Below are positions 1,637-63,870 of a DNA stretch of 64,000 nucleotides, in pieces (positions within the stretch are counted from its first letter, which is position 1; each line of letters starts with the position of its first letter). The position numbers were made by a program, and so were the translations under genes. Source of the DNA: Dehalococcoidia bacterium. GTDB taxonomy: Bacteria; Chloroflexota; Dehalococcoidia; Plut-88900. The stretch lies in NCBI GenBank assembly GCA_963668115.1, contig OY764147.1, positions 1,928,345 through 1,992,344 of the forward strand. Reading direction: 5' to 3'. Under the pieces are notes generated by a model. It was not told the origin of the DNA. It did no database searches and saw only the letters and a list, made by a program, of their open reading frames with translations.

Positions 1637-1649
1637 GGGAGAGGGGACT

Positions 1650-1771
1650 GGACACCACTCCGTTCCGTTCGGTCGACCCTTCGACTCCGCTCAGGGCGAA
1701 CGGAACCCCCACCCCGCGGGATGGATTCACGCCAATGGCGCATCTTCGACCCGACTACTCGGGAATGACGG
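1650..1771 (+). repeat. MITE-like nested-hairpin repeat, copy A (122 bp, identical to 1900..2021)
   Basis: Exact 122-bp direct repeat; outer stem gttccgttcg/cgaacggaac, inner gtcgacccttcgac palindrome; ends with gggaatgacgg module. Confidence 0.85.
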
Positions 1772-1899
1772 CATAAGGTGGGTGGGGATGATGGAGAGGG
1801 GCTTAGGGAGCGACGCTGGAGATTCCTCGCGGGGCATCGGAATGACAGTGTAGTGATGTGCAGGGCTAGGCAAGGGTGAGCGGCACCGCGCCGGGGAGG

Positions 1900-2021
1900 G
1901 GACACCACTCCGTTCCGTTCGGTCGACCCTTCGACTCCGCTCAGGGCGAACGGAACCCCCACCCCGCGGGATGGATTCACGCCAATGGCGCATCTTCGAC
2001 CCGACTACTCGGGAATGACGG
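1900..2021 (+). repeat. MITE-like nested-hairpin repeat, copy B (122 bp, identical to copy A; period 250 bp)
   Basis: Identical to 1650..1771. The 128-bp spacer 1772..1899 carries a 28-bp module (1820..1847) that recurs in reverse complement inside mnmG. Confidence 0.85.
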
Positions 2022-2076
2022 GTTAAAGGGTCGGGAATGATCCGCCATGGGCGGACAGGCTCCCCCGGAGGGTGGG

Positions 2077-3072
2077 TTATTTGGGGAGGACGGTGACTTT
2101 GATGGCGCCGGTGGACTTGTCGAGGGCGGTGTCGAAGGCGTGGGTGATGTGGGTGAGGGGGAAGCGGTGGGTCTGCATGAAGGCGACTTCGGAGGAGTAG
2201 CGGGCGAGGGAGTGTATGGTGGAGGCGAACTCCCGGCCATGGACGCCGACGCCGTACATGCTGGAGCCGACGATGTCGACTTCCTTGGCGACAAGCATGA
2301 GGCCGTCGACCCGGGAGTTGGCGGTGAAGATGCCGAGGATGACGATGCGGGCCTCGGGCTGGGCGGCTTTGATGGCATCGTTGATGGTGTCTGCTGCGCC
2401 GCCTACGGTTTCGATGACTACGTCGGGCTGGCGGTCCCGGGCCCAGTCTTCCCATTCGGTCTCGGAGAGGGGTGTGAGGCCGAGGCGTCGGGCGGCGTCG
2501 AACTGCTGGGGGTGTCGGGCGGTGATGGCGACTTCGGCGGCGCGGTCTCGGGCGAGGAGGCCGGCGAAGAGGCCGATGGTCCCGGCACCCAGGACAAGGA
2601 CACGGCTTTCGATTTTGAGCCGGGCGAGGGCGACGCCGCGGTAGGAGCAGGCCATGGGCTCGACGAGGGAGGCGAGGAGCGGGGGGAGGGAGTCGGGGAC
2701 GGGGTGGAGGGTGTGGGCGGGGACGTCTATAAACTCGGCGAGGCCGCCGGGCTCATCGATGCCGATGAACTTCATGGTTGGGCAGATGTTGGTTGCGCCG
2801 GCGGCGCAGTAGTTACAGTTAAGGCAGGCGTCCAGGGGTTCGATGGCGTAGAGGGAGTCGGGGAGGCCGGCGCCGCCTTCGATTATCGTGCCGACGATCT
2901 CATGGCCCATGACGACGTTGTTGTGCCGCGTGCTACGTCCGGCGTAGACGTGGAGGTCGGAGCCGCAGATGCCGCAGGCGGTGACGGAGATTCGGACGCG
3001 GGTCGGGGGGAGGGGGACGGGTTCGACGTCTTCCACGACCATGCCCTGGGAAGTCCACATTGAGCGCAGCAT
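2077..3072 (-). CDS. Zn-dependent alcohol dehydrogenase (MDR superfamily, sorbitol/threonine dehydrogenase-like)
   Basis: GHEIVG and CGICGSDLH zinc motifs, GAGTIGL NAD-binding motif; start placed at ATG 3072 with GGAGG 8 nt upstream (the longer ORF to 3234 would run into the HAD gene). Confidence 0.85.
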   Translation of the reverse strand: MLRSMWTSQGMVVEDVEPVPLPPTRVRISVTACGICGSDLHVYAGRSTRHNNVVMGHEIVGTIIEGGAGLPDSLYAIEPLDACLNCNYCAAGATNICPTMKFIGIDEPGGLAEFIDVPAHTLHPVPDSLPPLLASLVEPMACSYRGVALARLKIESRVLVLGAGTIGLFAGLLARDRAAEVAITARHPQQFDAARRLGLTPLSETEWEDWARDRQPDVVIETVGGAADTINDAIKAAQPEARIVILGIFTANSRVDGLMLVAKEVDIVGSSMYGVGVHGREFASTIHSLARYSSEVAFMQTHRFPLTHITHAFDTALDKSTGAIKVTVLPK

Positions 3073-3145
3073 AGGGTTGCCTCCGGGGGGTGATGTGGGG
3101 AAGTCTACACGGGCCTCGGGGGGCCGTCCACGAGGAGCGGGGTCT

Positions 3146-3892
3146 CTAGAGTCTTGCGAGGGCTTCGGGTAGCTCTGAGAGGTTGTCGACGCGGGCGTCG
3201 GGGGAGACGGGGACGTGGTCCCAGGTTGCACCACCTATGAGGACGGCTTTCATGCCGACGCGCTGGGCGCCTAGGATGTCGGTTTCGGGGCGGTCACCTA
3301 CGTGGACGGACTGTCGGGGGTCGGCGCCGATGGCTTGGAGGGTATCCAGGAAGAGGGTGGGGGCGGGCTTGGCGATTTGCTCCTCATCGGAGAAGGTGAG
3401 GTGGAGGAGGTACCGGGCAATGCCGATGTCGGCGAGGAATTTTCGGGCGAGGGCGCCGGGGGTGGTTCCGGAGTTGCAGATCAGGGCGATCCTGTAGCCC
3501 TCGTCGGTGAGGGTGGAAAGGGTCTCGAGGACGCCGGGCATCAGGGCGGGGGGGTGCTCCAGGAAGGCGTTCAGGTGGCGCTCGGAGACCTGCGCTTTGG
3601 CTTCGGGGTCGAGGGAAGAGGAAAGGTCGGGCTGGATGGAGTCGAGGAAGTCGTTCAGCTGGGTTTCGAAGGGGGTGTCGAGGCCTCGGGTGCGGACGTT
3701 TTCGAACTTCTGCTGGGAGTCCCAGTAAACCTCGGCAATGTGCTCCCTGGTGCAATGGACACCGTACTCGGAGAGGATGGCGGTTGTGGCGTCGATTCTC
3801 TTCCTGGCTCGGGAGACTCCGCCGCCTGCCACGTCCCTTATGAGGGTGTTCCACAGGTCGAATGTGATGCCTTGTATTGCGTCGTTTCTCAT
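3146..3892 (-). CDS. HAD-superfamily hydrolase (phosphatase-like)
   Basis: N-terminal FDLWNTL (DxD-type HAD motif I) and C-terminal VGDRPETDI motif. Confidence 0.8.
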   Translation of the reverse strand: MRNDAIQGITFDLWNTLIRDVAGGGVSRARKRIDATTAILSEYGVHCTREHIAEVYWDSQQKFENVRTRGLDTPFETQLNDFLDSIQPDLSSSLDPEAKAQVSERHLNAFLEHPPALMPGVLETLSTLTDEGYRIALICNSGTTPGALARKFLADIGIARYLLHLTFSDEEQIAKPAPTLFLDTLQAIGADPRQSVHVGDRPETDILGAQRVGMKAVLIGGATWDHVPVSPDARVDNLSELPEALARL

Positions 3893-9619: not shown

Positions 9620-10597
9620 TCAGGCCGAGGGCTTGATCCCCCTCACCAAAGGCAGAACTTCCTGAGCGAACCTCTCGTACTGTTCCATCATCCGCTCAGG
9701 GACAACCCCCGCGTTCATCACGAAGTGCGTGACTCCCGCATCGACGTACTCCTGGATCCCCTCTGCACAGTCCTCCGCTCGACCCGACACGTTAGCCTCC
9801 CCACGCACCGCCCTGGTATGGCTCCTCCGCCGGTTGGACTCCGCCTCCAGCGTTTCCCAGGCGCGCTCCGGGTCGTCATCGAGGCAGAACCAGAGCACGG
9901 TGCCGAACTCGATTGCGTCCGGGTCGCGCTTGGCATCTCGGGCGTAGGCGCGTACCTTTTCCCGCACGGCCCTATATTCTGACGCGGGAACCAGGGTGGG
10001 CACGAAGCCGTCCGCCATATTGCCGGCCCTCACGACTGTCGACTCCACGAGGCCGTTTTTCCACAGGGGGCCCATCCAGATCGGGGGGTGGGGCTTCTGC
10101 GCGGTCTCGGGTCCCACCTGCACTCCATCCATCTGATGGAACTTGCCCTTATGGGAGACGTTCTCTCCGGAAAGGAGCTTGCGCAGCAGCATGAGCTTTT
10201 CGTCTGCCATCTTGCCTCGTTCGTGGATGTCGAGGCCGAGGGCGTCGAACTCCCTCTTGTTGCTCCCCACCCCCAATCCCAATATAACGCGCCCGTTGGT
10301 TAGGACGTCCACCGTTGCCACCGACTTTGCCAGCAGCAGCGGATGCCTGTACGGGAGCACCATCACCGCGGTTCCCAGCAGAATATGGTTCGTCCTCTGG
10401 GAGGCAGCGGCGAGAAGGGCAAGGGGGTCGGGGGAGCCGCCGAGGGCGAAGTCGGTGGTCCAGAAGGAGTCGAAGCCTGCGGCCTCGGCGCGGACCGCCA
10501 TGTCGACAGCCTCGGTCGGGTCGTTTATGTGGGAGTGCATTATTCCGAATTTCACGTCAGCAGCATCCTGTCCTAAAGAAAGATAAAGGGCTGGCAC
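9620..10597 (-). CDS. LLM-class F420/FMN-dependent oxidoreductase (paralog); start uncertain (possibly GTG about 10555)
   Basis: 325 aa LLM signature; by analogy with the other paralogs the N-terminus may begin at VKFGIMH. Confidence 0.8.
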   Translation of the reverse strand: MPALYLSLGQDAADVKFGIMHSHINDPTEAVDMAVRAEAAGFDSFWTTDFALGGSPDPLALLAAASQRTNHILLGTAVMVLPYRHPLLLAKSVATVDVLTNGRVILGLGVGSNKREFDALGLDIHERGKMADEKLMLLRKLLSGENVSHKGKFHQMDGVQVGPETAQKPHPPIWMGPLWKNGLVESTVVRAGNMADGFVPTLVPASEYRAVREKVRAYARDAKRDPDAIEFGTVLWFCLDDDPERAWETLEAESNRRRSHTRAVRGEANVSGRAEDCAEGIQEYVDAGVTHFVMNAGVVPERMMEQYERFAQEVLPLVRGIKPSA

Positions 10598-11953: not shown

Positions 11954-12898
11954 ATGCCCAAAGTCGAATTCGGACCCCTTTACACCACCATGGAGAAGTA
12001 CATCGGACCCGTGGAGTTCGCCGAAAAGGCCGAAGCCTGGGGATACGACTACTACTGGGTGCCCGACTACGTCACGCTTAGCCCCATGGACGCCTTTGTG
12101 CTGCTTTCGGCGGTGGGGCAGAGGACGAACTCCATCAAGTTGGGGACCGCCGTTGTGGTTGTGCCGTTCAGGACGCCCTTCCAGCTTGCCAAGGCCTCGG
12201 CGACGGTGGACGTGTTGTCGGGTGGGCGTTTCACCTTGGGGGTGGGGATAGGGGGCGCCGTGCCCCGGGACTTCGATGTCGCCCAGGTCGACATGCGAAA
12301 GCGCGGCCGCATCTCCAACGAGACCCTCCACATCACCCGCCGCCTCCTCACCGAGGAGAACGTCAGCCACCGCGGCCACTACTATTCATTCGACGACCTT
12401 ACAATCGAGCCACGGCCCGTAAACGACTCCGGGATACCTATCTGGATAGGTTCCATCTGTAACAACGGCTTCCCGCAGGGTGTCGTGGACCGGGCGGCAC
12501 GCTACGGCGACGGATTCTGCCCTACCGACACCCCAATCGAAGAGTTCAAGAAGGTCCAGGAGCGTGTCCGTGCCAGGGCGGCAGAGCTGGGTCGGGACCC
12601 GGACTCCATACAATGGGGCTTGCTGGCCTGGACCTGTGGCGGTAGTTCCAAGGAAGAGGCACGGCAGACGGCGAGCCGAGAGATAAGCAAACGGCTGGAG
12701 TCGGAGTGGGACGTGCAGGCGGACAACGGGTACATTCTCGGGACTCCCGAGGAGATGGCCGAGACCCTTCAGGGCTACGTGGATATTGGGGTGACGAATT
12801 TCGTCGTGGACCCGGCCTGCGCACCGGAAGACATGCTCGAAATGTTCGAGGTCTTCGCGAAAGAGGTCACACCCCACTTCAGGGGCGAAGACAGCTGA
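11954..12898 (+). CDS. LLM-class F420/FMN-dependent oxidoreductase (paralog)
   Basis: MPKVEFGPLY start at ATG 11954 (the longer ORF from 11825 has no LLM-like N-terminus); stop overlaps the next LLM start (ATGA). Confidence 0.8.
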   Translation: MPKVEFGPLYTTMEKYIGPVEFAEKAEAWGYDYYWVPDYVTLSPMDAFVLLSAVGQRTNSIKLGTAVVVVPFRTPFQLAKASATVDVLSGGRFTLGVGIGGAVPRDFDVAQVDMRKRGRISNETLHITRRLLTEENVSHRGHYYSFDDLTIEPRPVNDSGIPIWIGSICNNGFPQGVVDRAARYGDGFCPTDTPIEEFKKVQERVRARAAELGRDPDSIQWGLLAWTCGGSSKEEARQTASREISKRLESEWDVQADNGYILGTPEEMAETLQGYVDIGVTNFVVDPACAPEDMLEMFEVFAKEVTPHFRGEDS

Positions 12899-13848
12899 TG
12901 AGCGAATTGGGATTCGGGGTTACCCTGTTCGACGCGAATGAGAGGCCGGTTATCAAGCAGGGTGTCGACGCAGAGGCATGGGGCTATTCCATCTTCTGGG
13001 CCCCCGAGTTTTTGGGCATCCCCACCCTTGAACCCTTTCCCGTCCTCTCAGCAGTAGCACAGCACACCACCAGCATCAGGCTGGGCACCGGAATAGCGGG
13101 GCTGGCCGTTCGCAGCCCCGTCCAGATGGCCAAGGCCGCAGTCACCACCGACATCCTTTCCAACGGCCGGCTGGTGTTGGGGCTGGGGTTGGGGGGACTT
13201 GTTCCCATCGATCTGGAGGTCGAAGGCATCCCCAATCTCAGGGAACGCGGGCGCATCTCCAATGAGCGCCTCGAAATCCTCTATAGGCTCTTTACCGAGC
13301 GCATCGTTTCCTATTCCGGTGACTACTATGATTTCAAGGACTTTACCCTGGGTCCCGACCCCGTGCAGAAGCCCCGAGTCCCCATCTGGCTCGGGGCACG
13401 GTGGACGGGCAAGATAGCCGATGCTGCCCTCAAGCGCGCCGGGACCTACGCCGACGTCTTCATCTTCCCCGCCGACACCCCAACGTCCTACTATACTTAC
13501 GGCAAGGAAAAGGTCCGGGCCTACGCCGAAGCCGCGGGTCGGGACCCGGACGCCATAGGCTTCGCAAGCACCATGTGGACGTGCCTCGGGCCGTCTCGGG
13601 AGAAGGCAATTGAAGTCGCCGACCGCATCATCCCGGAGATGCTCAGCGTGCCCTGGGTGGTGCCGGACAACGCCTGCTACGGCATGGGCACCCCCGAGGA
13701 CTGCATCGCAACGGTGGAGGAGTTCGCCGAACTGGGTGTATCGCACCTCATCATGAACCCCTGCTGCGATTACGAAGAGGTCACGGCGCAGACCGAGCAG
13801 TTCGGTCGGGAGGTAATATCGCACTTCAAGTCGGGTGATGCCTCGTGA
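12898..13848 (+). CDS. LLM-class F420/FMN-dependent oxidoreductase (paralog; near-duplicate of 13845..14792)
   Basis: ATG 12898 overlaps upstream stop; MSELGFGVTLFD N-terminus; highly similar to the downstream gene. Confidence 0.8.
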   Translation: MSELGFGVTLFDANERPVIKQGVDAEAWGYSIFWAPEFLGIPTLEPFPVLSAVAQHTTSIRLGTGIAGLAVRSPVQMAKAAVTTDILSNGRLVLGLGLGGLVPIDLEVEGIPNLRERGRISNERLEILYRLFTERIVSYSGDYYDFKDFTLGPDPVQKPRVPIWLGARWTGKIADAALKRAGTYADVFIFPADTPTSYYTYGKEKVRAYAEAAGRDPDAIGFASTMWTCLGPSREKAIEVADRIIPEMLSVPWVVPDNACYGMGTPEDCIATVEEFAELGVSHLIMNPCCDYEEVTAQTEQFGREVISHFKSGDAS

Positions 13849-14792
13849 CAATAATGGAGTTCGGGGTTACCCACACCGGGCTAAGTGACCGCTCGCCGGT
13901 GCGGCAGGGCATGGACGCCGAGGCCTGGGGCTACGGCATTTTCTGGGCGCCCGAATTCCTCGCGATTCCGACCCTTGAACCCTTTTCCGTCCTCTCAGCC
14001 GTGGCCCAGCGCACCTCCACTATCAAGCTAGGCACGGGCGTCGCAGGGCTGGCACTGCGCAGTCCATTCCAGCTAGCCAAGGCTGCCATCACCACGGACA
14101 TCCTATCCGACGGACGGCTGGTACTCGGGCTGGGCCTGGGGGGTGTCCATCCCAAAGACCTGGAGGTTGAGGGCATTCCCAACCTGCGGGAACGGGGCCG
14201 GGTCTCCAACGAGAGGCTGGAAATCCTTTACCGGCTCTTCACCGAGAAGAACGTCTCCCACTCCGGCGAATACTACCAGTTCGAGGACTTCACCCTCACC
14301 CCCGACCCCGTGCAAAGGCCCCATGTTCCCATCTGGGTCGGGGCACGGTGGTCGGGCAAGATCTTCGACGCCGCCCTGAAGCGCGCCGGGACCTACGCCG
14401 ACGTCTTCATCTTCCCCGCCGACACGCCGACGGACTACTACCCGGGCGCCAAGGAGAAGATCAGGAAGTACGCCGAAGCTGCGGGCCGGGACCCGGGCGA
14501 TATCCGTTTCGCCTCGACTCTCTGGACTTGTCTTGCCTCATCGCGGGAAGAAGCAAAGGCCATTGCCAACCGTGAGATTACCCGTTCGCTGCAAGTCCCC
14601 TGGGTGGTCCCCGACAACGCCTGCTACGGGCTCGGGACGCCGGAAGACTGCATAGCTACCGTGGAGGAATTCGCAGACCTCGGCGTCTCCCATCTACTCC
14701 TGGCCCCCTGCTGCACTCCCGAAGAGATTACCGCCCAGACGGAGCAGTTCGGCCGCGAAGTCGTATCCCATTTCAAAGGTGATGCCCAATGA
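13845..14792 (+). CDS. LLM-class F420/FMN-dependent oxidoreductase (tandem duplicate)
   Basis: 315 aa; most residues identical to 12898..13848; 4-bp overlaps on both sides. Confidence 0.85.
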   Translation: MTIMEFGVTHTGLSDRSPVRQGMDAEAWGYGIFWAPEFLAIPTLEPFSVLSAVAQRTSTIKLGTGVAGLALRSPFQLAKAAITTDILSDGRLVLGLGLGGVHPKDLEVEGIPNLRERGRVSNERLEILYRLFTEKNVSHSGEYYQFEDFTLTPDPVQRPHVPIWVGARWSGKIFDAALKRAGTYADVFIFPADTPTDYYPGAKEKIRKYAEAAGRDPGDIRFASTLWTCLASSREEAKAIANREITRSLQVPWVVPDNACYGLGTPEDCIATVEEFADLGVSHLLLAPCCTPEEITAQTEQFGREVVSHFKGDAQ

Positions 14793-15718
14793 ACAAAATC
14801 CAGTTCGGACCCCTCTTTTTCCCTACCGAAGAAGGCCCCGAGGCCCTCGAACTCGCCAAAATGGCCGATGACCTCGGGTACGACTACTTCTGGGTCCCTG
14901 ACTACGTGACCCTGCCTTACCTGGACGCCTTCGTCCTGCTGGCAGCAGCCGCCCGGGAGACGAAGAACGTGAGGCTCGGAACTGCGGTGACGCTGGCGCC
15001 TTTCCGGTCGCCCTTCCAGATGTTCAAGGATGCGGCGTCGGTGGACGTGCTTTCGGATGGTCGGCTGACGCTGGGCGTGGGTATCGGCGCCGTGGCCCGG
15101 GACTTCGAGATCGCTCAGGTCGACTTCCGTAAGCGCGGCCGCATCTCCGATGAGTACATCGACATCACCCGACGCCTCTTAGCCGGGGAGCACGTGGACT
15201 ACGACGGTGAGTTCTACAGCTTCCGCGACCTGACTATGGGCCCTCGACCCGTCCAGCAGCCCGTTCCCATCTGGATCGGGGCAAATGGGCAGAGCGGCTT
15301 TCCACCGGGTGTGCTGCGTAGAGCAGGGCGCCTCGGGGACGGCTTTTTCCCCACCGAGACCCCCATCAAGACCTTTATGGAGGCCCAGGCCAGCATCCAG
15401 GAGCACGCCGAGGCCGCAGGCCGCAATCCCGACAACATCGGATGGGGCCTGCTAACCTGGAGCGCCCTGGCCGACAACCGGGAAGAGGGGGTCAGGACGG
15501 CTGAAAGGGAGATCGGGGCCCGGCTGAACAAAGTGCACACGGTGAACCCGGATGCCGGGTACGCAGTCGGGCGGCCCGAGGACATGATCGAGACCATAGA
15601 GTCCTTCGCCAAGATCGGTGTAACCAACTTCGTCATAGATCCCGGATGCCACCCCCGTGACATACGCACCCTCGTCGAGACCTTCGCCAAAGAGGTCATG
15701 CCCCACTTCCGAGATTAG
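14789..15718 (+). CDS. LLM-class F420/FMN-dependent oxidoreductase (paralog)
   Basis: 309 aa; MNKIQFGPLF N-terminus; start overlaps upstream stop. Confidence 0.85.
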   Translation: MNKIQFGPLFFPTEEGPEALELAKMADDLGYDYFWVPDYVTLPYLDAFVLLAAAARETKNVRLGTAVTLAPFRSPFQMFKDAASVDVLSDGRLTLGVGIGAVARDFEIAQVDFRKRGRISDEYIDITRRLLAGEHVDYDGEFYSFRDLTMGPRPVQQPVPIWIGANGQSGFPPGVLRRAGRLGDGFFPTETPIKTFMEAQASIQEHAEAAGRNPDNIGWGLLTWSALADNREEGVRTAEREIGARLNKVHTVNPDAGYAVGRPEDMIETIESFAKIGVTNFVIDPGCHPRDIRTLVETFAKEVMPHFRD

Positions 15719-21280: not shown

Positions 21281-21616
21281 CTAACGCCGTAATGCTAGAC
21301 GCTCTGCGGCCAACCGGTTCATACTGACTCCGGCTTCGGCGGCATCCATAGCGAGGGAGCGGTGGGTGTCGGGTGGGATGCGAAGTGTGAGAGTCCCGCT
21401 GTAGCGTCGTGTGGAAATCGGCTCAGGGACCGGCTTGCCCTCCTCACGTAACCATCGGATCGAGAAGGCCACCAGCTCACGGATGCCTGCGAATGCCTTT
21501 TCCGGCGTGTCGTCCAGGTGGCTGAGGGAGCCGAACTCGGAGCACAGCCCGACGAACTCCTCGTCCTCCTCGGACCAGAGGACTCGGTAAGCGTATCGGT
21601 CGGCGATTTCAGGCAT
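21281..21616 (-). CDS. hicB: HicB-family antitoxin (UPF0150 N-domain plus C-terminal ribbon-helix-helix), orphan
   Basis: YRVLWSEEDEEFVGLCSEFGSLSHL HicB N-domain; C-terminal TLTLRIPPDTHRSLAMDAAEAGVSMNRLAAERL RHH; no HicA ORF in the 58-bp upstream gap. Confidence 0.7.
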   Translation of the reverse strand: MPEIADRYAYRVLWSEEDEEFVGLCSEFGSLSHLDDTPEKAFAGIRELVAFSIRWLREEGKPVPEPISTRRYSGTLTLRIPPDTHRSLAMDAAEAGVSMNRLAAERLALRR

Positions 21617-21674
21617 CGATCTGCTCTTTAGGCTTCCTTGATAAATGAAGGTCTAAAAAGTGTCAATTCTTCTC

Positions 21675-38593: not shown

Positions 38594-38998
38594 GTTGCGC
38601 CCCTTCCCCGGCTCGAAAAATTTTGCCCGACATGATAGACCCGCACCACCCATTCAGCAATACAAATCGGCTTGTGCAAACCCGGTATTGCGCGATTCAC
38701 CACAATGGCCTTATATTGGAAGTACATCAAGAAAGGAGGTGATCAATTGGAAACAGATGATAAACGGACTGGTGAGGTGTCTGTAACGTAAACGGTTTTG
38801 ACACGTAGTCGTGCCCATTGGGTTCCGTTTACGGAATCCGCGCAGGCACCGGGCCCCGAAGCTCCCGGGTAGTCCACCGGGGCGGCCGCAAGGCTGAAGC
38901 GCTTCGGGGCTTTTCCTTTGCCCGTCTTAACTCCAAAACAATCTATCGCCGCACTGCCTAGGGGTCACTACAGGAAGACTCTTAAACATCAGTAAGGC

Positions 38999-40072
38999 CT
39001 AGCAATCAGCCAATGGGAGTTCGGAGAGGTCATTGCTGCGGGCATAATGTAGGAGTCGGGGTATACAGCCGGCAAGACGATTTCCTCCAGCGATATACAG
39101 AGAATTAAGCTCAGACAACTTGCCCAATTCCGGCGGTATCTCTCCGCTCAACTTGTTGTAGTTGAGCCATAATGTTTCCAACTTGGAAAGGTTTCCCAAT
39201 TCCGGCGGTATCTCTCCCGTTAGCTCATTCTCACGGAGATTCAACTCTTCTAGGTTGGAGAGTTCACTCAGTTCGGGCGGTATCTCCCCGCTTAAGTTAT
39301 TATCCCAGAGGCTCAGGCGCTCCAAGCTGAAAAGCTTGCCTAATTCCGGGGGTATCTCCCCGCTTAAGTTATTATCCCAGAGGCTCAGGCGCTCCAAGCT
39401 GAAAAGCTTGCCTAATTCCGGGGGTATCTCCCCGCTTAACCCTTCGAAACCGAGATCCAGTGCCACAACCCGGTCATTCACGGCGGTTACGCCGTCCCAT
39501 TCGCCAATGGGTTTATCGCTTAGCCAGTTTTCGTTACTGTCCCAACTCGGGCCATTCGTAGCGTTGTACAAGGTAATCAAAACTTCCCTATCAGATTCGG
39601 GAGTATGCCAGCAAGGTGGCAGCTCAAGGGATTCTCCCCATTCGGATAACTGATCTTTGTGTAACTCGTCCCATTCAGATGGTATCTCTCCACACAATTC
39701 GTTAAAGCTGAGAGACAGTGATTCCAAGTTGGCAAGTTTGCCTAGTTCCGACGGTATTCGCCCGCTCAACTCATTGTCATCAAGCCACAAAACTTTTAGG
39801 TTGGAGAGTCTACCTAGTTCCGGTGGTATTTCCCCACTCAACTCGTTCCAACTGAGATTCAATACCACAACACGGCCGTTTTCAGTGATGACACCATCCC
39901 ATTCGCCAATGGGCTTATCGCTCAGCCAATTGTCATTATGCCTCCAATCCGGGCCATTTGTAGCGTTATACAAGGTGACCAAAACTTCCCTGTCCGACTC
40001 AGGAGTATCCCCGCAGGCTGACAAAATAATGGACGTTACGCAAATTATCGCCAGTAAGACAACGATCAACAT
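38999..40072 (-). CDS. Leucine-rich-repeat lipoprotein (plant-type LRR units L..LSGEIPPELG), internally duplicated two-domain architecture
   Basis: Signal peptide plus lipobox (ILSAC); two TPESDREVL(V/I)TLYNATNGP...W domain starts; about ten 24-aa LRR units; low-GC region. Confidence 0.8.
   Translation of the reverse strand: MLIVVLLAIICVTSIILSACGDTPESDREVLVTLYNATNGPDWRHNDNWLSDKPIGEWDGVITENGRVVVLNLSWNELSGEIPPELGRLSNLKVLWLDDNELSGRIPSELGKLANLESLSLSFNELCGEIPSEWDELHKDQLSEWGESLELPPCWHTPESDREVLITLYNATNGPSWDSNENWLSDKPIGEWDGVTAVNDRVVALDLGFEGLSGEIPPELGKLFSLERLSLWDNNLSGEIPPELGKLFSLERLSLWDNNLSGEIPPELSELSNLEELNLRENELTGEIPPELGNLSKLETLWLNYNKLSGEIPPELGKLSELNSLYIAGGNRLAGCIPRLLHYARSNDLSELPLADC
39291..39434. 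repeat. Perfect 72-bp x2 tandem repeat inside the LRR gene (two identical 24-aa LRR units)
   Basis: The 72-bp unit tctccccgcttaagttattatcccagaggctcaggcgctccaagctgaaaagcttgcctaattccgggggta occurs twice consecutively. Confidence 0.85.
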
Positions 40073-50197: not shown

Positions 50198-50402
50198 ATG
50201 CCCACTCGTAGTCCCCCCGATACTGGTCGTTGCAGGAAGGCAACCCCAGACCCGACTCTCGACCATCCTCGCGACTGTTCCGGAGCCTGCATCCCGCTGC
50301 GGAGGTAGCTTATGGAATAGACCCGGCAGCAGATGAACTGTCTGCGGGGAGGCGCGTAATCCCTCCGAAGGCATCCTTAACACTGAAGGAGAATCTACAG
50401 GT

Positions 50403-51722
50403 ATGAAAAAACATTCTATGAAATCTAGGAGCAAGCGATGGCTGGCATTCGGGCTTCTTTCCCTTGCCCTGGTCGCTTTGCTTGTAGTTGCGGCCTGTGG
50501 CGAGTCAGCCACCGCCACCCCCGAGCCCGAGGAGGCGATGCCCGAGCCCACGCCCACCGCAATGATGGAGGAAGAGCCCGATGAGCCTTCCACCGGCTTG
50601 CGTCCTCTAAGCGAATGGACCGTCGATAACCCCGCCACCCACGAGGAGATCGAGGCGGCGCTGGCGGCCCACCAGGGCGGCTCCTTCGTCTTCGTCTCCT
50701 GGGGAGGCTCTTACCAGGACATGCAGGCCAAGGCGTTCCTGAGGCCCTTCGCCGAGAAATTCGGCGTGAATATCATCGAGGACGGCCCTCCCGACTACGC
50801 CAAGGTGCGGGCCATGGCCCACACAGGAAACGTGACCTGGGACGTGGTCGATGGCTCCGGCCAGGCCGGCGTCACCATGGGCCTCGAGGGCGTGCTGGAA
50901 GAGCTCGACGAGTCCATCATCAACAAGGCAGACCTGTTCCCCCACATCCGTGACGCGCCGTGGATCGGCGGCGGAGGCTCCGCCTACTCCATGGTCATGA
51001 TGTACAGCACGGACACTTACCCGGACGGCGGGCCTCAGCCCTCCAGCTGGGCCGACTACCTGGACAAGGAGAAGTTCCCCGGCATTCGCGGAATGATTCC
51101 CCAGGACTGGAACTGGAAGCACATGGTGCGCTGGCCCCTTATCGCCGACGACCCCTCGCTCCTTGAAACCGAGGAAGGCAGGGCTACGCTGTCAGCCATG
51201 TCCCCGGAGCAGCTGGACAAGGCCTGGAGACTTGTCGAGGAGCAGTGGATCCCCGCTATCGACATCTTCACCTCCGGAATCTACGACTGCCTCGCCTTCC
51301 TCGACTCCGGGGAGGTTGACATCTGCCAGGGGGACAACGGGGCCGCATACAACGGCATCGTGGAGGAAGAGTTCAACGTCGCGGCCTGCTGGGAGTGCGG
51401 GCACGATGTGCTGACCGACAACTGGTGGGTCATTAAGGGCATCAAGGAAGAGGACCCCAAGAAGTGGGAGCTCATTAACCTCTTCTTCGCCTGGACCCAG
51501 CACCCGGAAATTGCGGCAAGCCAGGCCCTCTACCAGCCCTTCGGGCCGACCAACCTGAAGTCGGCGCCCTTCCTGGATGCGCCTGAGTTCGACAGAATAA
51601 GGCCGTACCTGCCCACCGCCGACGCCAACCTTCCCTACGCCATCCTCATGGACGAGGCTGCTGACGGGGAGATAGGTGGACCTCAGGCGGAAATCTGGTT
51701 CGAAGTTCAGGGCAAGAATTAA
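50403..51722 (+). CDS. ABC-transporter periplasmic substrate-binding lipoprotein (PotD/PotF-like), copy 1
   Basis: Signal peptide plus lipobox (LVVAACGES), Pro/Glu/Thr linker, 439 aa SBP fold; no permease or ATPase genes nearby. Confidence 0.75.
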   Translation: MKKHSMKSRSKRWLAFGLLSLALVALLVVAACGESATATPEPEEAMPEPTPTAMMEEEPDEPSTGLRPLSEWTVDNPATHEEIEAALAAHQGGSFVFVSWGGSYQDMQAKAFLRPFAEKFGVNIIEDGPPDYAKVRAMAHTGNVTWDVVDGSGQAGVTMGLEGVLEELDESIINKADLFPHIRDAPWIGGGGSAYSMVMMYSTDTYPDGGPQPSSWADYLDKEKFPGIRGMIPQDWNWKHMVRWPLIADDPSLLETEEGRATLSAMSPEQLDKAWRLVEEQWIPAIDIFTSGIYDCLAFLDSGEVDICQGDNGAAYNGIVEEEFNVAACWECGHDVLTDNWWVIKGIKEEDPKKWELINLFFAWTQHPEIAASQALYQPFGPTNLKSAPFLDAPEFDRIRPYLPTADANLPYAILMDEAADGEIGGPQAEIWFEVQGKN

Positions 51723-51926
51723 TTAGGCCCAGGCAAGAAAACAGTGGGGGGCCGGTCATGCGACCGGCTCCCCACTGTGGTAACTCCGATCTTTGGCCCC
51801 ATGCTGGGAGGTGGCTGATGGACTAGAAAAGGCGGCATCCGTGCCGCAGCCGGTAATGTGAGCTTAACGCCCATTACAGTTGAGTACGTTGGACTGGTTG
51901 AGCAGCGATTGGAGAAGAGGTTAGCT

Positions 51927-53234
51927 ATGAGAAACGAGACCCGCAATTTCAAGAGCAAGCGGTGGTTGGCCATGGTCCTTCTGTCCCTGGCCCTCGTCGC
52001 CCTGCTAGTGGTTGTGGCTTGCGGAGAGTCCGCCACGGCGACTCCGGAACCCGAGGACGCCATGCCCGAGCCAACCCCCACGGCTATGATGGAACCAGAT
52101 GAGCCGGAGACTTCGTTGCGGCCCATCAGCGAATGGACCGCCGACAACCCCGGCACCCACGATGAGGTCGTTGCTGCCCTGGCAGCCCACCGCGGCGGCA
52201 GTTTCACCTTTGCATCCTGGGGCGGCGCCTACCAGGCCATGCAGCGTCAGGCCTTCCTTGTCCCATTCGCAACTGAATTCGGCGTCGAGATCATTGAAGA
52301 CGGCCCACCCGACTACGCCAAGGTCAGGGCCATGGCCCGCACCGGCAACATCACATGGGACATTATCGACGGCTCCGGCCAGGCCTCAATCACCATGGGC
52401 CTTGAGGGAGTCCTCGAAGAGGTCAACCCCGCTATCGTCGACAAGACCGACCTCTTCCCCCACATCCGGGACGCCCCGTGGATCGGCGGCGGAGGCTCTG
52501 CCTTTTCCCACATGGTCATGTGGAGCAAGGACACCTACGGAGACGACGGGCCCAAGACCATGGCCGACGTTTTCGACAAGGAGAAGTACCCCGGCCGCCG
52601 CGGCATTTTCACCCAGGACTGGGCCTGGAAGCACCGCGTACGCTTCGGACTCCTTATCGATGATCCCACCCTCCTTGACACCGAGGAAGGCAGGGCTTCT
52701 CTGTCGGCCCTCTCTCCCGAGCAGCTCGATTATGCATGGCAGGTTGTCGAAGAAGTGATGATTCCCAATACCGACGTCTTCTTCTCCGGCGCCAGCGACT
52801 GCCCGGCCCTTCTGGAGTCCGGTGAGCTGGACGTTTGCGAGACCGACAACGGCATCGGCTTCGACTCAATCGTCAATAGTGGTCTAAACGCCCACCTGTG
52901 CTGGGAGTGCGGCCACGACGTGCTGACGGACAACTGGTGGACCCCCAAGGGTCTCGCCGAGCAGGAGCCTGAGCGATATGAGCTCATTAACCTGTTCTTC
53001 GCATGGGCCCAGCATCCGGAAATCGCGGCCAGCCAGGCTCTTTACCAGCCCTACGGCCCGACCAACCTGAAGTCGGGACCTTTCCTGGCCGACCCCAAGT
53101 TCGACACCCATAGGCCATACCTGCCCACCGCAGAGGCCAACCTCCCCTTCGCCATCTTGATGGACGAGGCAGCGGACGGAGTAATAGGCGGCGCGCAGGC
53201 GGAAATCTGGTTCGAAGTACAGGGCAAGAACTAG
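51927..53234 (+). CDS. ABC-transporter substrate-binding lipoprotein, tandem paralog (copy 2)
   Basis: Start at ATG 51927; signal, lipobox and linker almost identical to copy 1; mature domain is similar but divergent. Confidence 0.75.
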   Translation: MRNETRNFKSKRWLAMVLLSLALVALLVVVACGESATATPEPEDAMPEPTPTAMMEPDEPETSLRPISEWTADNPGTHDEVVAALAAHRGGSFTFASWGGAYQAMQRQAFLVPFATEFGVEIIEDGPPDYAKVRAMARTGNITWDIIDGSGQASITMGLEGVLEEVNPAIVDKTDLFPHIRDAPWIGGGGSAFSHMVMWSKDTYGDDGPKTMADVFDKEKYPGRRGIFTQDWAWKHRVRFGLLIDDPTLLDTEEGRASLSALSPEQLDYAWQVVEEVMIPNTDVFFSGASDCPALLESGELDVCETDNGIGFDSIVNSGLNAHLCWECGHDVLTDNWWTPKGLAEQEPERYELINLFFAWAQHPEIAASQALYQPYGPTNLKSGPFLADPKFDTHRPYLPTAEANLPFAILMDEAADGVIGGAQAEIWFEVQGKN

Positions 53235-53308: not shown

Positions 53309-55366
53309 CTAGGTTGCCTCAACCCTCTCCCGCCCCCGCTCCAAATGCACCAGCAGCAGGCTGATGTCCGAGGTCCTCACCCCCGGCACCCGGGATGCCT
53401 GCCCCACCGTCAGCGGCACGAAGCGGCCTAGGTTCTCCCGGGCCTCGTTCGAAAGGCCCTTGATCTCCCCGTAGTCCACGTCCTGCGGAATCGGTCTCTG
53501 CTCCAGCCTGCGTATCCTCTCCACCTCCCGGCCCTGACGCTCGATGTAGTCCTGGTACTTGGCCTCGATCTCCACCTGCTCCCTCTCCTCCTCCCCCAGT
53601 CCCTCGTCCCCCAGGCCTAGCTCTACCGCCGTCTGATACCCGACCTCGGGCCTGCGCAGGAACTCCATCCCCGTGACCGCCTTCCGAACGGGCGTCAGCC
53701 CGATGCTTACCAGGTGAGGGTCTATGCTTCCGTCCTGCGGCAGATACGTCTTGCCCAGCCTTTCCATCTCCCGGGTCACCCGGCTACGCTTCTCCTCCAC
53801 CGTCCTGTATTGCCCCTCGCTGAGCAACCCAACGTCATAGCCGATGGGAGCGAGACGGAGGTCGGCGTTGTCCTGACGTAACAGGAGCCGGTGCTCGGCC
53901 CGAGACGTGAGCATCCGATACGGCTCGAAGTGGTCCCGGGTCACCAGGTCGTCTATCATCACCCCCAAATAAGCCTGGTCCCGACGCAATACCATCGGCC
54001 CCCGGCCCTTCACCCGAAGCGCCGCGTTTATCCCCGCCACTATCCCCTGCCCCGCCGCCTCCTCGTACCCCGATGTCCCGCACACCTGCCCCGCCAGGAA
54101 CAGGTTTGGAATCAGCTTTGTCTCCATCGTCGCGTTGATCTGGTCCGTCAACACGAAGTCGTACTCTATGGCGTAGCCGTGCTTCAGTATCTCGGCCCGT
54201 TCCAGCCCCGCTATCGACCTCACGAAGGCTTCCTGCACGTCCTCCGGAAGGCTGGTATTAGCGCCCTGGAGGTACACCTCGTCGGTCTGCCAACCCTCGG
54301 GTTCCAGGAACAGGCCATGTGACTCCTTGTGGGCGAAGCGCACAACCTTGTCCTCGATGGACGGGCAGTACCGTGGCCCGACCCCCTCTATCGAGCCGTT
54401 GAACATCGGCGCCCGGTCCAGGTTTGCAGTGATAAGTTCGTGGGTCATGGGATTCGTGCTCACCAGGTAGCAGGCCATCTGCGGCCGCCACCCCGACTCC
54501 TGGGGCTTGGGATATACCGGATTAGGCGTAGGAAAGCGCAGTGAATCGCCGTTGGCGCCCCAGAAGCTGAAGTGCAGGGGCGTCGGGCTGCCGGGCTGTA
54601 TCCTGGCCTTTGAGAAGTCGATAGTGCGAGCGTCCAGCCGGGGCGGCGTCCCTGTCTTGTGTCTTCCGAGAACGAACCCCAACTGCTTCAACGACTCCGA
54701 TATCTCCGACGCCGCGGGCTCCCCCGCCCGACCCCCCGTGTACGCCCGCTCACCCATGATGATCTTTCCCGCCAGCGACGTCCCTGTAGTCAGCACCACC
54801 GTCCTCCCCACATATGCCTCCCCGGACTTCGTCTCCAAACTGATCCACCCACCCTCAGACAATCCGTCATTCCCACCCCCGAGCCGGAATCCATCCCCTC
54901 CCCCAATATCACTACGACGCCTATCTCCCATGTCATTCCGATGCCCCGCGAGGAATCTGGGGTGGGGTCCGCCTCCTCCCCCCAGCACAATCCCCACAAC
55001 CAAATCCTCCCTGGCCGTCAACCCCTCCTGCCTCTCCAGCGTCCTCCGCATCTCCCGCGCATACATCTCCTTATCCGACTGGGCACGAAGTGCTTGCACC
55101 GCCGGTCCCTTCCCTGTGTTCAGCATACGGATCTGGATGAACGTCTTGTCCGTGTTCCGGCCCATCTCCCCACCCAGCGCATCCACTTCCCGGGCCAGGT
55201 GTCCCTTCGCCGGCCCCCCTATCGACGGGTTGCAAGGCATCAGTGCGATATGGTCCAGCTTCATCGTCAGGACCAGGGTATCGCAACCCATCCGCGCCGC
55301 CGCCAAAGCTGCCTCGCACCCCGCATGCCCCGCCCCGATAACAATTACGTCGTAGGTCTTGGTCAT
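53309..55366 (-). CDS. mnmG: tRNA uridine 5-carboxymethylaminomethyl modification enzyme MnmG (GidA), carrying a roughly 45-aa Gly/Arg-rich in-frame insertion
   Basis: [28 protein letters not shown]-terminus and GidA core motifs; 685 aa versus about 630 typical. Confidence 0.85.
54864..54985 (-). repeat. Repeat-family-derived segment inserted in-frame within mnmG
   Basis: Begins with the ccgtcattccc terminal module; 54931..54958 is an exact 28-bp reverse-complement match to 1820..1847; ggggtgggg module at 54960. Confidence 0.7.
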
Positions 55367-61324: not shown

Positions 61325-61405
61325 TCCCCTTGGGGTGGGGCATTCCGCTCGCCCTGAGCGGAGTCGAAGGGTCTCAAGAGCGGAATGGGTGGGGTGTCCC
61401 GCTCC
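61325..61405 (-). repeat. Nested-hairpin repeat, copy C (reverse orientation relative to copies A/B)
   Basis: Core gccctgagcggagtcgaagggtc identical to the reverse complement of the copy A core; outer stem cattccgctc/gagcggaatg differs from A by compensatory changes. Confidence 0.8.
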
Positions 61406-63723: not shown

Positions 63724-63764
63724 GCTTCGAATTATACAACCTCATCATTTCCTCCCTTCACGTT

Positions 63765-63870
63765 CCGTCATTCCCGCAAGAGCCAAATGCCGCTCGCTTC
63801 AGGGGTGGGGCAGAATCCGCTCATCCTGAGCAGGGTCGAAGGGTCGAGCGGATTCTGGGAGGTGTCCCCC
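63765..63870 (-). repeat. Nested-hairpin repeat, copy D (full length, with terminal modules ccgtcattccc ... ggtgtccccc)
   Basis: Outer stem cagaatccgctc/gagcggattctg (12 bp, compensatory relative to A and C); core atcctgagcagggtcgaagggtc. Confidence 0.8.

Follow-up and report, generated by a model that had tools for sequence, protein, structure and literature searches.

A probable cluster of REP-like CGTC/TGTC-tagged repeats lies in frame in a surface loop of Dehalococcoidia MnmG

The MnmG (GidA) protein encoded in the window, the 64,000-nucleotide stretch of Dehalococcoidia DNA analysed here, contains a Gly/Arg-rich insert that most probably (probability of about 0.8) constitutes a small cluster of REP-like, CGTC/TGTC-tagged units at the tip of a β-hairpin in the FAD-binding domain. 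At the level of sequence comparison the interpretation holds that the 43-residue segment comprises two in-frame copies of a small dispersed REP-like repeat of this kind. A repeat-derived, in-frame origin of the segment had been proposed in a first-pass annotation of the same DNA, and is borne out by covariance-model matches and by an exact 28-mer. Coordinates of the insert, its component units and related elements are presented in Table 1.

The length of 685 residues and the Gly/Arg-rich stretch quoted in the annotation were both recovered, and PDB MnmG/GidA structures match the product with E values of 1e-166 to 1e-170 (HMMER). Pfam analysis of an identical database protein (P0001) revealed GIDA, GIDA_C_1st and SAM_GIDA_C domains. 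In the window protein the GxGxxG FAD motif is intact, as are the two catalytic-type cysteines, C45 and C334, which sit in the motifs containing C47 and C277, respectively, of the E. coli enzyme. The ORF encodes MnmG/GidA, as shown by the features that mark this family, namely a GIDA FAD domain, C-terminal GIDA domains and a pair of conserved cysteines. The gene was termed essential in the annotation; E. coli gidA/mnmG mutants are viable. The EDLVVG and VVLTTGT blocks, described in the annotation as contiguous in canonical GidA, are in fact separated by ~25 residues, which form a β-hairpin, in solved structures and in insert-free relatives.

The insert was delimited through protein and DNA alignments with the insert-free alleles P0007/L021 and P0043/L022, which carry the uninterrupted loop that the annotation expected in related genomes. 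The resulting boundaries, uncertain by up to ~20 nt, lie close to those originally assigned (54864-54985, ~45 residues), and HMMER broke the alignment with PDB structures at query residues 131/171. The annotation envisaged a single landed element; the segment contains at least two units plus a junction, and across the clade the locus appears to gain, lose, duplicate and erode units. Read on the plus strand, unit A comprises TGTCATTCC-GATGCCCCGCGA-GGAATCT followed by GGGGTGGGG, with TGTC-ATTCC at 54931 and a predicted translation of 13 residues. Unit B, with a predicted translation of 14 residues, reads CCGTC-ATTCCCAC-CCCCGA-GCCGGAAT-CCATCC; its stem is eroded, with a G-G mismatch and a G-T wobble. 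Unit A is open in five of its six reading frames, so survival in frame is easy. The spacer connecting the two units varies greatly among relatives, and blastn of the insert detected nothing significantly similar to it in the rest of the window. In the related filled allele L023, the stretch matching the 5′ junction aligns out of frame with ancestral loop codons. The empty-allele loop, AAGTGCCGAGAATGGAA, is identical to the 5′ part of L023 at 14 of 17 positions (p=0.004, shuffles), and its similarity to the 3′ part is not significant. A target-site duplication is unsupported: flank-to-flank similarity was not significant in eight of ten genomes, and only one flank of the insert in the filled allele could be aligned with the empty loop.

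Table 1. Positions of mnmG, its insert and related repeat elements in the window
Feature	Position	Strand	Description
mnmG (gidA)	53309..55366	minus	685 aa, ORF intact (ORF list)
In-frame insert relative to empty alleles	54860..54988	minus	aa 127-169; 43 aa, 129 nt; Gly/Arg-rich
G-rich 5′ junction of insert, VLGGGGG	54969..54988	minus	
Unit A, TGTC-tagged	54929..54968	minus	Covariance-model match, 50.9 bits, E 2e-12
Spacer between units A and B	54898..54928	minus	10 aa predicted translation
Unit B, CGTC-tagged	54863..54902	minus	Covariance-model match, 35.2 bits, E 1e-7
Intergenic unit A	1810..1849	plus, opposite orientation to mnmG copy	Covariance-model match, 47.6 bits; exact 28-mer
Intergenic long unit B	1713..1772	plus	GGATTC / ACGCCAATGGCGCATCTTCGAC / ...CGGGAATGACGG
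Second long unit B copy	1963-2022		Member of 250-nt tandem duplication
Intergenic member-like fragment	63764..63810	plus	TCCGTCATTCCCG ... GGGGTGGGG, then hairpin of second repeat family

The insert has one significant match in the rest of the window, the exact 28-nt reverse-complementary match between 54931-54958, within unit A, and 1820-1847 (blastn E 4e-10 within the window), just as first annotated. The partner is an intergenic unit A that belongs to a composite repeat cluster flanked by convergent McrBC-like and Zn-ADH genes (Pfam on flanking ORFs). Two motifs are over-represented in the window: CGTCATTCCC, with 4 copies against 0.22 expected, and GTCATTCC-N12-GGAATC, with 3 copies against 0.03 expected, two of them in mnmG and one at 1821. 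The terminal module named in the annotation, CCGTCATTCCC, does begin at 54864, where unit B reads CCGTC-ATTCC, but neither of the 11-12-mers CCGTCATTCCC and GAATCCATCCC is individually significant (blastn E 0.8-3). Their kinship to the two long unit B elements is clear only through a long unit B in the mnmG of a relative; the 21-nt inner piece of the intergenic long form lies inside a unit B of L145 mnmG. These two elements are weak covariance-model matches (E 3.2 and 0.84, respectively), and the duplication to which the second belongs (1643-1776 / 1893-2026) is 97% identical. The annotated G-rich module, GGGGTGGGG, is likewise present, at 54959-54967, but is weak evidence by itself because many of its 19 copies in the window merely encode Gly-Val-Gly in genes; its value as evidence comes solely from relatives, in which many intergenic copies of the unit are preceded by a C-rich CCCCNCCCC tail.

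A covariance model built from 14 units was searched against 280 kb of sequence from this genome and from 14 relatives, revealing 44 matches at E<=0.01. The 27 matches located in mnmG are all on the coding strand, and the other 17 represent 16 sites, every one between genes. Units extend over 27-48 nt and comprise ATTCC...GGAAT arms flanked by the tag at one end and by a C-rich or CCA-type tail at the opposite end; those in mnmG share the coding strand, a single orientation and a single frame, and the reading frame is kept in every allele. Unit A also occurs at intergenic sites in relatives, and intergenic copies of unit B were identified at L006 18431 and L004 18761. The 16 intergenic sites are non-homologous or syntenic and lack flanking mnmG sequence. 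More widely, the pattern AGATTCCTCGCNNNGCNTCGGAATGACA was found in >120 metagenome contigs whose GC content ranges from 30 to 72%; they derive from unrelated organisms, most of them of low GC, and the pattern nearly always lies outside credible genes. Such a distribution bears on whether the loop could be home-grown, arising by replication slippage in mnmG, with the intergenic likenesses due to chance or to copied mnmG fragments. The region is G-rich and repetitive, unit arms are partially duplicated and all units share one orientation, as expected from tandem duplication. Against this stand the 27-40-nt unit at the 16 intergenic sites, its occurrence in the metagenome contigs, the E value of the 28-mer match and the lack of motif traces in outgroup loops. 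A slippage origin is accordingly given very little credence and is, in essence, refuted by the metagenome-contig and covariance-model distributions. A phmmer search with the 46-residue insert against 1.84 billion representatives retrieved only an MnmG fragment (P0127), so occurrence of the two-unit block in other protein families is unsupported; single units are too short for detection by phmmer.

In ~35 MnmG proteins from independent assemblies (78-93% identity), including long-read chromosomes and short-read scaffolds, 22-98 extra residues built from the same two peptide modules are located at the same β-hairpin tip. The loop is short and empty in three close relatives and in all Chloroflexota that are more distant; it spans 12-24 residues in the 11 sequences that are outgroup or empty, against 34-110 residues in filled ones, and alignment revealed no trace of the repeat motif in outgroup loops. 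The empty P0007 adjoins the filled P0003 in a neighbour-joining tree, and the empty L021 and filled L023 originate from the same sample and share ~96% nucleotide identity. The insert is probably not required, because empty alleles persist at this level of identity. Nearly every filled allele contains unit A, and filled alleles differ in the number (1-5), type, order and decay state of their units; mnmG DNA of relatives displays nested long forms, half units, decayed units and partial arm duplications. On these comparisons the insert is old and variable between relatives. The recent event considered in the annotation is contradicted by unit A and the same non-repeat 5′ flank being common to lineages only ~80% identical in protein.

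The annotation had also considered an assembly chimera. Repeats are classic places for misjoins, and the segment might alternatively represent an intein- or intron-like sequence that is later removed. These possibilities have next to no probability, since units occupy exactly the same codon position, always in frame, in the ~35 independent assemblies, and P0127, from a separate assembly, carries an insert 88% identical over 41 aligned residues. Rfam detected no intron or other RNA family at the insert, 43 residues are too few for an intein, and intein blocks were not noticed on reading the sequence; intein and intron were both dropped on grounds of length and of the missing RNA family match. 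A diversity-generating retroelement was likewise discarded, as neither a template repeat nor a reverse transcriptase accompanies the segment.

The structural context of the repeat cluster was modelled with AlphaFold using 91 sequences (mean pLDDT 68.8, pTM 0.74); an earlier run with 47 close sequences was set aside as too poor (mean pLDDT 56). The insert is modelled between strands 123-128 and 175-179 of the FAD-binding domain, with pLDDT of 30-37 for residues 131-171 and >80 for the flanks. The site corresponds approximately to residues 130-131 of E. coli MnmG, which places it in segment 100-160 of the FAD domain and not among the residues listed as contacting MnmE. In the model the insert is predicted to fall on the protein surface, at the β-hairpin tip and away from catalytic residues, in agreement with the surface loop of the FAD domain anticipated in the annotation. 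Chloroflexia MnmG displays an unrelated insert of ~30 residues at the same hairpin tip.

The mobile hairpin of the annotation fits the family, but the eroded window copies fold poorly: the two units fold no better than shuffles (z +0.57 and -0.62). The unit A stem comprises 5 bp (ATTCC/GGAAT, 96.5% of cells paired) with a 12-nt loop and a CTGGGG tail. Unit B has an 8-bp stem, ATTCCGGC/GCCGGAAT, paired in 93.8% of cells over 12 copies and perfect in L144, L146 and L149, a 6-nt loop (coding strand, TCGGAG or TCGGGG) and a CCAT tail. The unit at L002 15446 has a 4-nt loop, a CCAG tail and a fold z of -3.7. Conservation at the DNA level is strong. In 10 genes (alignment-defined columns), none of the nine codons of the unit A core changes at its third position, whereas 25% of third positions are invariant gene-wide (0.25^9 ~4e-6), and five of the nine vary at position 1 or 2. 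As third positions are fixed and first or second positions vary, conservation acts on the DNA element rather than on the peptide. This claim rests on the alignment-column version; a 15-gene test (P 2e-7) was rejected as biased because the selecting regular expression fixes five of the nine third positions. The wider unit A set presents a single synonymous third-position change, CTC to CTT in L144, and another synonymous substitution, CGG to AGG in L149, affects a first position. From the sequences compared, this strong conservation of unit A is not predicted by simple neutral decay.

One way to account for such conservation is domestication, with units kept because they function as DNA or RNA (a hairpin for an Ssn-type nuclease, a recombination or transformation signal, an mRNA structure) or as an RGG-like tRNA-binding arm. 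The third-position pattern, the presence of unit A in nearly all filled alleles and the resemblance of the L002 unit to the target of the Neisseria nuclease SsnA point in this direction, as does a stem pair changing from T-A to C-G through T-G within coding copies. This covariation is limited to a single base pair, and the observed values are reached by 36-51 of 500 shuffles. Empty alleles in close relatives, including the one from the same sample, free variation in unit number and order, units that are clearly decaying and the poor folding of the window copies all argue against domestication, which is unlikely. Furthermore, concerted evolution with genomic copies would produce the same third-position pattern with no function needed, and motif scanning of the window revealed no ssn/GIY-YIG gene. 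A related suggestion, also rather improbable, is that the nucleotide sequence of the mnmG units may be actively maintained, either by hairpin selection (an Ssn-like nuclease or other repeat-binding factor) or by gene conversion from the repeat pool; in a weaker variant, the Gly/Arg loop would have been co-opted as a tRNA-contacting arm. If true, mnmG would carry a live cis-element, of which the peptide would be a by-product.

MITEs measure 70-300 bp and carry 15-30-bp terminal inverted repeats and short target duplications. Like the units described here, they (Correia/NEMIS, Nezha and others) are non-autonomous and can be translated as part of a protein; identity with MITEs was rejected as units extend over 27-48 nt and a target-site duplication is unsupported. 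RAYT-mobilised GTAG REPs/BIMEs (IS200/IS605-like Y1) share with the present units a small size, clustering as hairpin repeats, strand-specific behaviour, absence of target-site duplication and occasional intragenic copies. This identity was also rejected, because the tag is CGTC/TGTC rather than GTAG and no RAYT/Y1-transposase was noticed in the 10 ORFs beside repeat clusters scanned with Pfam.

The closest counterparts are CGTC-tagged REPs (Di Nocera et al. 2013, PMC3733652) and the RPE-4/RPE-6 elements of Rickettsia conorii (Ogata et al. 2000). CGTC-tagged REPs carry an unpaired CGTC (often TGTC or CCTC) at one hairpin end, a stem of 8-9 bp with A-T as the first two pairs, a 4-5-nt loop and a short single-stranded tail, frequently CCA; they flank no RAYT gene (PMC3733652). 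In-frame GTAG/CGTC REPs and RPEs have been described, including clusters encoding 43-82 residues and insertions in tRNA-modification genes (PMC3733652), and five supplementary text files of that study make no mention of mnmG. The likeness extends to several features: short palindromes tagged CGTC (often TGTC) with arms starting AT; a mostly intergenic location, at times in frame within housekeeping and tRNA-modification genes; occurrence as singles, dimers or clusters of up to 43-82 residues, absent from orthologues; and no known dedicated transposase. The present units display the same tag (CCGTC-ATTCC in unit B, TGTC-ATTCC in unit A), dispersed and mostly intergenic copies, and an element within a conserved ORF that introduces no stop or frameshift and is absent from orthologues. 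In contrast, the host belongs to Dehalococcoidia (Chloroflexota), a single mnmG loop serves as a hot spot with 1-5 units and clade-wide presence/absence and copy-number polymorphism, the stem of unit A has only 5 bp with a loop of 12 nt, and long forms carry the nested 21-nt piece.

Neisseria dRS3/NTS repeats form another close counterpart. The NTS consensus, CGTCATTCCCG-CGMAVG-CGGGAATCYRG, is the target of the GIY-YIG single-strand nuclease SsnA (PMC11893778). It is matched at 26 of 28 positions by the L002 unit only (CGTCATTCCCG-AGCAGT-CGGGAATCCAG); the window units diverge in the inner stem, and unit B retains CGTCATTCCC and GGAATCCA. NTS and the present units are both oriented, many-copy hairpins with conserved non-palindromic flanks. 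They differ in that NTS are intergenic and clustered around genes, whereas the mnmG units lie in coding sequence and would be translated. The degenerate SRM regular expression of PMC11893778 produced 0 matches among the units tested, and the 64-kb window yielded no ssn homologue. Motif scanning of all ORFs of the window and loci for GIY-YIG returned false positives only (e.g. a HicB-like ORF), Pfam identified no GIY-YIG protein among the 10 ORFs beside repeat clusters, and the same searches found no transposase or nuclease gene. We infer the mobility of the units solely from their distribution.

For the REP-like cluster we propose that at least one unit entered the loop in the ancestor of the Dehalococcoidia clade. 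Birth and death of units would have followed, through local duplication and deletion between repeated arms and nested 21-24-nt insertions, possibly together with new insertions beside existing units, and with decay by point mutation. Most of the copy-number variation could be explained by local duplication alone. Frame-breaking variants would all have been purged by selection, and the product would be a disordered Gly/Arg/Asp-rich surface loop tolerated by MnmG.

In-frame intragenic copies of the CGTC/TGTC-tagged REP superfamily, which includes Neisseria dRS3/NTS and Rickettsia RPE-4/6, are already known. The present data would extend the in-frame REP decoration of housekeeping proteins, best known in Rickettsia, to Chloroflexota. 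The near-identity of one unit to Neisseria NTS, together with that of the 28-mer core across organisms of 30-72% GC, suggests recognition machinery that may be shared across phyla, and the invariance of third codon positions offers a simple handle on DNA-level constraint within coding sequence. Such Gly/Arg-rich stretches in conserved enzymes should be annotated with care, as they may be repeat-derived rather than novel domains. Empty, one-unit and up to five-unit alleles in closely related genomes form a natural series in one enzyme, which could reveal how small repeats enter, multiply and decay in a gene, and how large a disordered insert can be accommodated in an enzyme loop.

The protein encoded by the minus-strand mnmG gene matches solved MnmG/GidA structures with E values of 1e-166 to 1e-170, and it retains the FAD motif and the two conserved cysteine motifs unbroken. 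HMMER alignments against the PDB fall into two pieces, query residues 4-131 and 171-676, with no equivalent for residues 132-170. Comparison with empty alleles (mnmG without repeat units in the loop concerned) defines 43 extra aa, close to where the first-pass annotation, made from the sequence alone, had placed the insert. The Gly/Arg-rich stretch quoted there is found in the ORF translation, and the core of its interpretation, an in-frame, repeat-derived insert, is right. The EDLVVG and VVLTTGT blocks had been described as contiguous in canonical GidA, which is wrong: a β-hairpin of ~25 residues separates them in solved structures and in insert-free relatives.

An AlphaFold run on 91 sequences (mean pLDDT 68.8, pTM 0.74) predicts strands at residues 123-128 and 175-179 that bracket the insert, with pLDDT of 85-95 for residues 101-130, 30-37 for residues 131-171 and 81-93 for residues 171-190. 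PDB alignments equate query residue 178 with E. coli residue 139 (numbering corrected for the tags of 9hip_C and 3ces_A, 20 and 22 residues long as inferred from chain lengths), and thus the insert is predicted to lie at about E. coli residues 130-131, within the FAD-domain segment 100-160. The site is absent from the MnmE-contact residues listed in PMC12397908. A β-hairpin tip of low pLDDT between confident strands agrees with the surface loop of the FAD domain that had been anticipated. Chloroflexia MnmG proteins (loci L012, L013 and L017) present an unrelated insert of ~30 aa at the same tip, which argues that the tip is generally permissive. These proteins also display a second insert, of ~35 aa, after the GINAAL helix, and in L014 the C-terminal domain contains GEQRFAPTDNAxAGMQ repeats arranged in tandem.

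An identical MnmG protein is present in the database on a 3.0-Mb contig. About 45 relatives with 75-93% identity, from chromosome-level or large-contig MAGs labelled 'Dehalococcoidia bacterium', are 638-749 aa long, and their internal length variation, start-codon artefacts excluded, is confined to one loop. The loop region comprises 12-24 aa in uninterrupted alleles, which were found in outgroups (identity ≤70%) and in the close relatives P0007, P0043 and P0044. Filled alleles, with units, have 34-110 aa, in which two modules, the first (G)ASPRFLAG(H/P)RNDM or a 14-residue alternative and the second of 11 residues, are joined by variable, Gly/Arg/Asp-rich linkers. The empty P0007 (locus L021) and the filled P0003 (locus L023) come from one sample, have a common gene order and are ~96% identical in DNA either side of the insert site; a neighbour-joining tree of insert-masked protein places P0007 as sister to P0003 and P0043 basal to this sub-clade. 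The frameshifted MnmG fragment P0127, from a separate assembly, carries an insert 88% identical to that of the window over 41 aligned residues. The first-pass annotation had allowed for an assembly chimera or a recent event; the filled and empty relatives together with the independent P0127 copy exclude a chimera as well as a recent single event. The mnmG insert represents a polymorphic locus with several units, old and shared across the clade.

The insert contains two dispersed-repeat copies, unit A and unit B. As first proposed, 54931-54958 (28 nt) is the exact reverse complement of 1820-1847; with a blastn E value of 4e-10, this is the insert's sole significant match elsewhere in the window. 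The window holds four copies of CGTCATTCCC (0.22 expected) and three of GTCATTCC-N12-GGAATC (0.03 expected), two within mnmG and one at 1821. The GGGGTGGGG module is indeed present in the insert, at 54959, but is a weak marker taken alone: of the 19 window copies, many lie in genes and simply encode Gly-Val-Gly. A covariance model derived from 14 units has strong hits in the window solely at the two mnmG units and at 1810-1849, while weak hits at 1713-1772 and 1963-2022 represent a long form of unit B containing a 21-nt inner piece, ACGCCAATGGCGCATCTTCGAC. This piece recurs within a unit B of L145 mnmG, which vindicates the earlier tie of CCGTCATTCCC / GAATCCATCCC to the 1.7-2.0 kb cluster, and a similar one is present within unit A of L004 and L009. 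The cluster comprises a 250-nt tandem duplication (1643-1776 and 1893-2026, 97% identical) and contains a unit A, two unit B copies of the long form and, also in two copies, a second dispersed family of hairpins, GGGGTGGGG-N-(A/G)ATTCCGCTCGCCCTGAGCGGAGTCGAAGGGTC...GAGCGGAAT, whose frequent neighbours are CGTCATTCCCG fragments.

Coordinates of the mnmG locus and of repeat features (window positions unless a relative's locus is named)
Feature	Position	Strand	Remarks
mnmG ORF	53309-55366	minus	685 aa
Insert in mnmG	54860-54988		aa 127-169
Unit A in insert	54929-54968		TGTC-tagged
Unit B in insert	54863-54902		CGTC-tagged
Composite repeat cluster	1640-2060		between convergent McrBC-like (371-1636, plus) and Zn-alcohol-dehydrogenase (2077-3234, minus) genes
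Second hairpin family	1660-1715, 1910-1965, 61332-61388, 63802-63850		every copy intergenic
Long units A and B with a nested 21-nt piece	1713-1772; L004 10402-10462; L009 10453-10513; L145 ~1990-2050		

Other repeats in the window involve tandem paralogous genes at ~12250-15250 (repeat run spaced 941-947 nt; families D2, D4 and D9) and two tandem paralogous solute-binding proteins at 50346-53234 (1512 nt apart, 70-79% DNA identity). An Rfam hit above gathering score (58.8 bits, 38724-38918) to Ms_IGR-5, an actinobacterial sRNA family, lies immediately upstream of a 72-nt tandem repeat block (39117-39841).

On the coding strand, unit A reads CCCCACCCC-AGATTCC-TCGCGGGGCATC-GGAATGACA and unit B GGATTCCGGC-TCGGGG-GTGGGAAT-GACGG; on the opposite strand they start with TGTC and CGTC, respectively. 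CGTC-tagged REPs, as defined by Di Nocera et al. (PMC3733652), carry a terminal CGTC (often TGTC), have short loops, CCA-like tails and 8-9-bp stems with A-T pairs first, and lack a dedicated transposase. These authors equate them with Neisseria dRS3 and Rickettsia RPE-4/6 and describe copies lying in frame within genes, among them clusters that encode 43-82 aa and insertions in tRNA-modification genes. Unit B fits this class in its CGTC tag, CCAT tail and 8-bp stem ATTCCGGC/GCCGGAAT, which is paired in 93.8% of cells (12 copies) and perfect in L144, L146 and L149, whereas in unit A the agreement is limited to the tag and the 5-bp arms (96.5% of cells paired). The unit at L002 15446, CGTCATTCCCG-AGCAGT-CGGGAATCCAG, folds well (z -3.7) and matches 26 of 28 positions of the consensus of Neisseria NTS, which the single-strand nuclease SsnA targets (PMC11893778); the stricter SRM pattern of that study found no match among the units tested here. 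'Hairpin element', as the insert had been called, is apt for the family, but the window's two copies are eroded: their folds are no better than those of shuffled controls (z +0.57 and -0.62), nor is that of the whole insert on either strand, and the window's unit B stem has one G-G mismatch and one G-T wobble. No GIY-YIG ORF was seen within the 64-kb window. A small minus-strand ORF at 21281-21652, conserved in L001 and L002, came up as a false hit when ORFs were scanned for GIY-YIG motifs and is a candidate HicB-type antitoxin.

In the 280 kb searched, the covariance model returned 44 hits at E≤0.01, 27 of them in mnmG and every one of these on the coding strand; the other 17 represent 16 sites, each between genes, and no unit was found in a gene other than mnmG. 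In L001, L002 and L023 a unit A lies upstream of an amidohydrolase gene; L005, L009, L144 and L147 have one between DUF362/DUF2283 and mnmG. Unit B or variants occur outside mnmG at L006 18431, L004 18761 and L002 15446. At one intergenic site upstream of mnmG (9884-9923), the core ATTCC-N12-GGAAT is inverted in L009 relative to L005, with flanks (CCCC...AG / GACAGT) of unchanged orientation, as if the palindrome core had flipped. Among the matches listed for the degenerate unit A pattern AGATTCCTCGCNNNGCNTCGGAATGACA are more than 120 contigs, 30-72% GC, of soil, peat, marine and sludge metagenomes; ...TCGCTTCGCTTCGG... is the core most often met among them, and a handful of copies lie in long, spurious-looking ORFs. 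The family is thus far older and wider than the mnmG clade, and mnmG cannot be its source. In contigs from these environments (L024-L143, e.g. L026, L041, L054 and L129), with GC contents from 30% to 72%, the 28-mer AGATTCCTCGCTTCGCTTCGGAATGACA recurs letter for letter; its core includes GCGAAGC, a very stable DNA mini-hairpin. In L028 (5566-5830, 40% GC) this 28-mer is repeated in tandem every 39 nt, and an open frame there reads VIPKRSEESxSLS repeats; L046 and L055 have arrays with a period of ~200 nt.

Across ten genes, only 25% of third codon positions show no variation gene-wide, while all nine codons of the unit A core (AGA TTC CTC GCG GxG CxT CGG xAT GAC) are third-position invariant (0.25^9 ~ 4e-6, alignment-defined columns) and five of the nine vary at position 1 or 2. 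Conservation thus acts on the nucleotides of the element and not on the peptide. An extension to 15 genes gives a biased P-value, as its units were picked by a pattern fixing five of the nine third positions. The larger set shows just two synonymous changes in the core, one at a third position (CTC to CTT in L144) and one at a first position (CGG to AGG in L149). Stem pair 3 in coding copies follows the path T-A, T-G, C-G, and unit B covariation only weakly exceeds its shuffle control, 36-51 of 500 shuffles attaining the observed values. The conservation of unit A may stem from selection on a hairpin or a recognition site in DNA or RNA, or else from concerted evolution with copies elsewhere in the genome.

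Among relatives, the loop DNA differs by gain and loss of whole units. L003 and L144 each combine two unit A variants in one gene, and one unit A of L144 contains a 24-nt partial duplication of its 3' arm. Isolated half-arms (CCTCGGAATGGCATG) occur in L145 and L147 and a decayed long unit B in L146. L004, L009 and L145 have nested 21-nt pieces in their units; the piece, (A/C)CGCCTCGGCG(C/G)A(T)CTT..., is similar across long units A and B and placed right after the 5' arm, which suggests a repeat within a repeat. Five of the six reading frames of unit A are open, and all 27 mnmG units share one orientation and one frame (xGG AAT GAC). Neither empty-versus-filled alignment nor within-genome flank comparison supports a target-site duplication: the 5' portion of the filled allele aligns, out of frame, with the empty loop (14/17 identical, p=0.004), the 3' portion does not (p=0.14), and flank similarity is not significant in eight of ten cases. 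We infer an old entry of a repeat unit into the mnmG loop, which would have been followed by birth-and-death of units through slippage or recombination between arms, possibly with further gains from fresh insertions, each change being filtered for an unbroken reading frame.

The mnmG case belongs to the known phenomenon of intragenic CGTC-type REPs and RPEs. New are the host lineage and host gene, the hot-spot behaviour, with alleles from empty to five units, the near-identity of one unit (L002) to Neisseria NTS, and DNA-level conservation in a repeat that is predicted to be translated.
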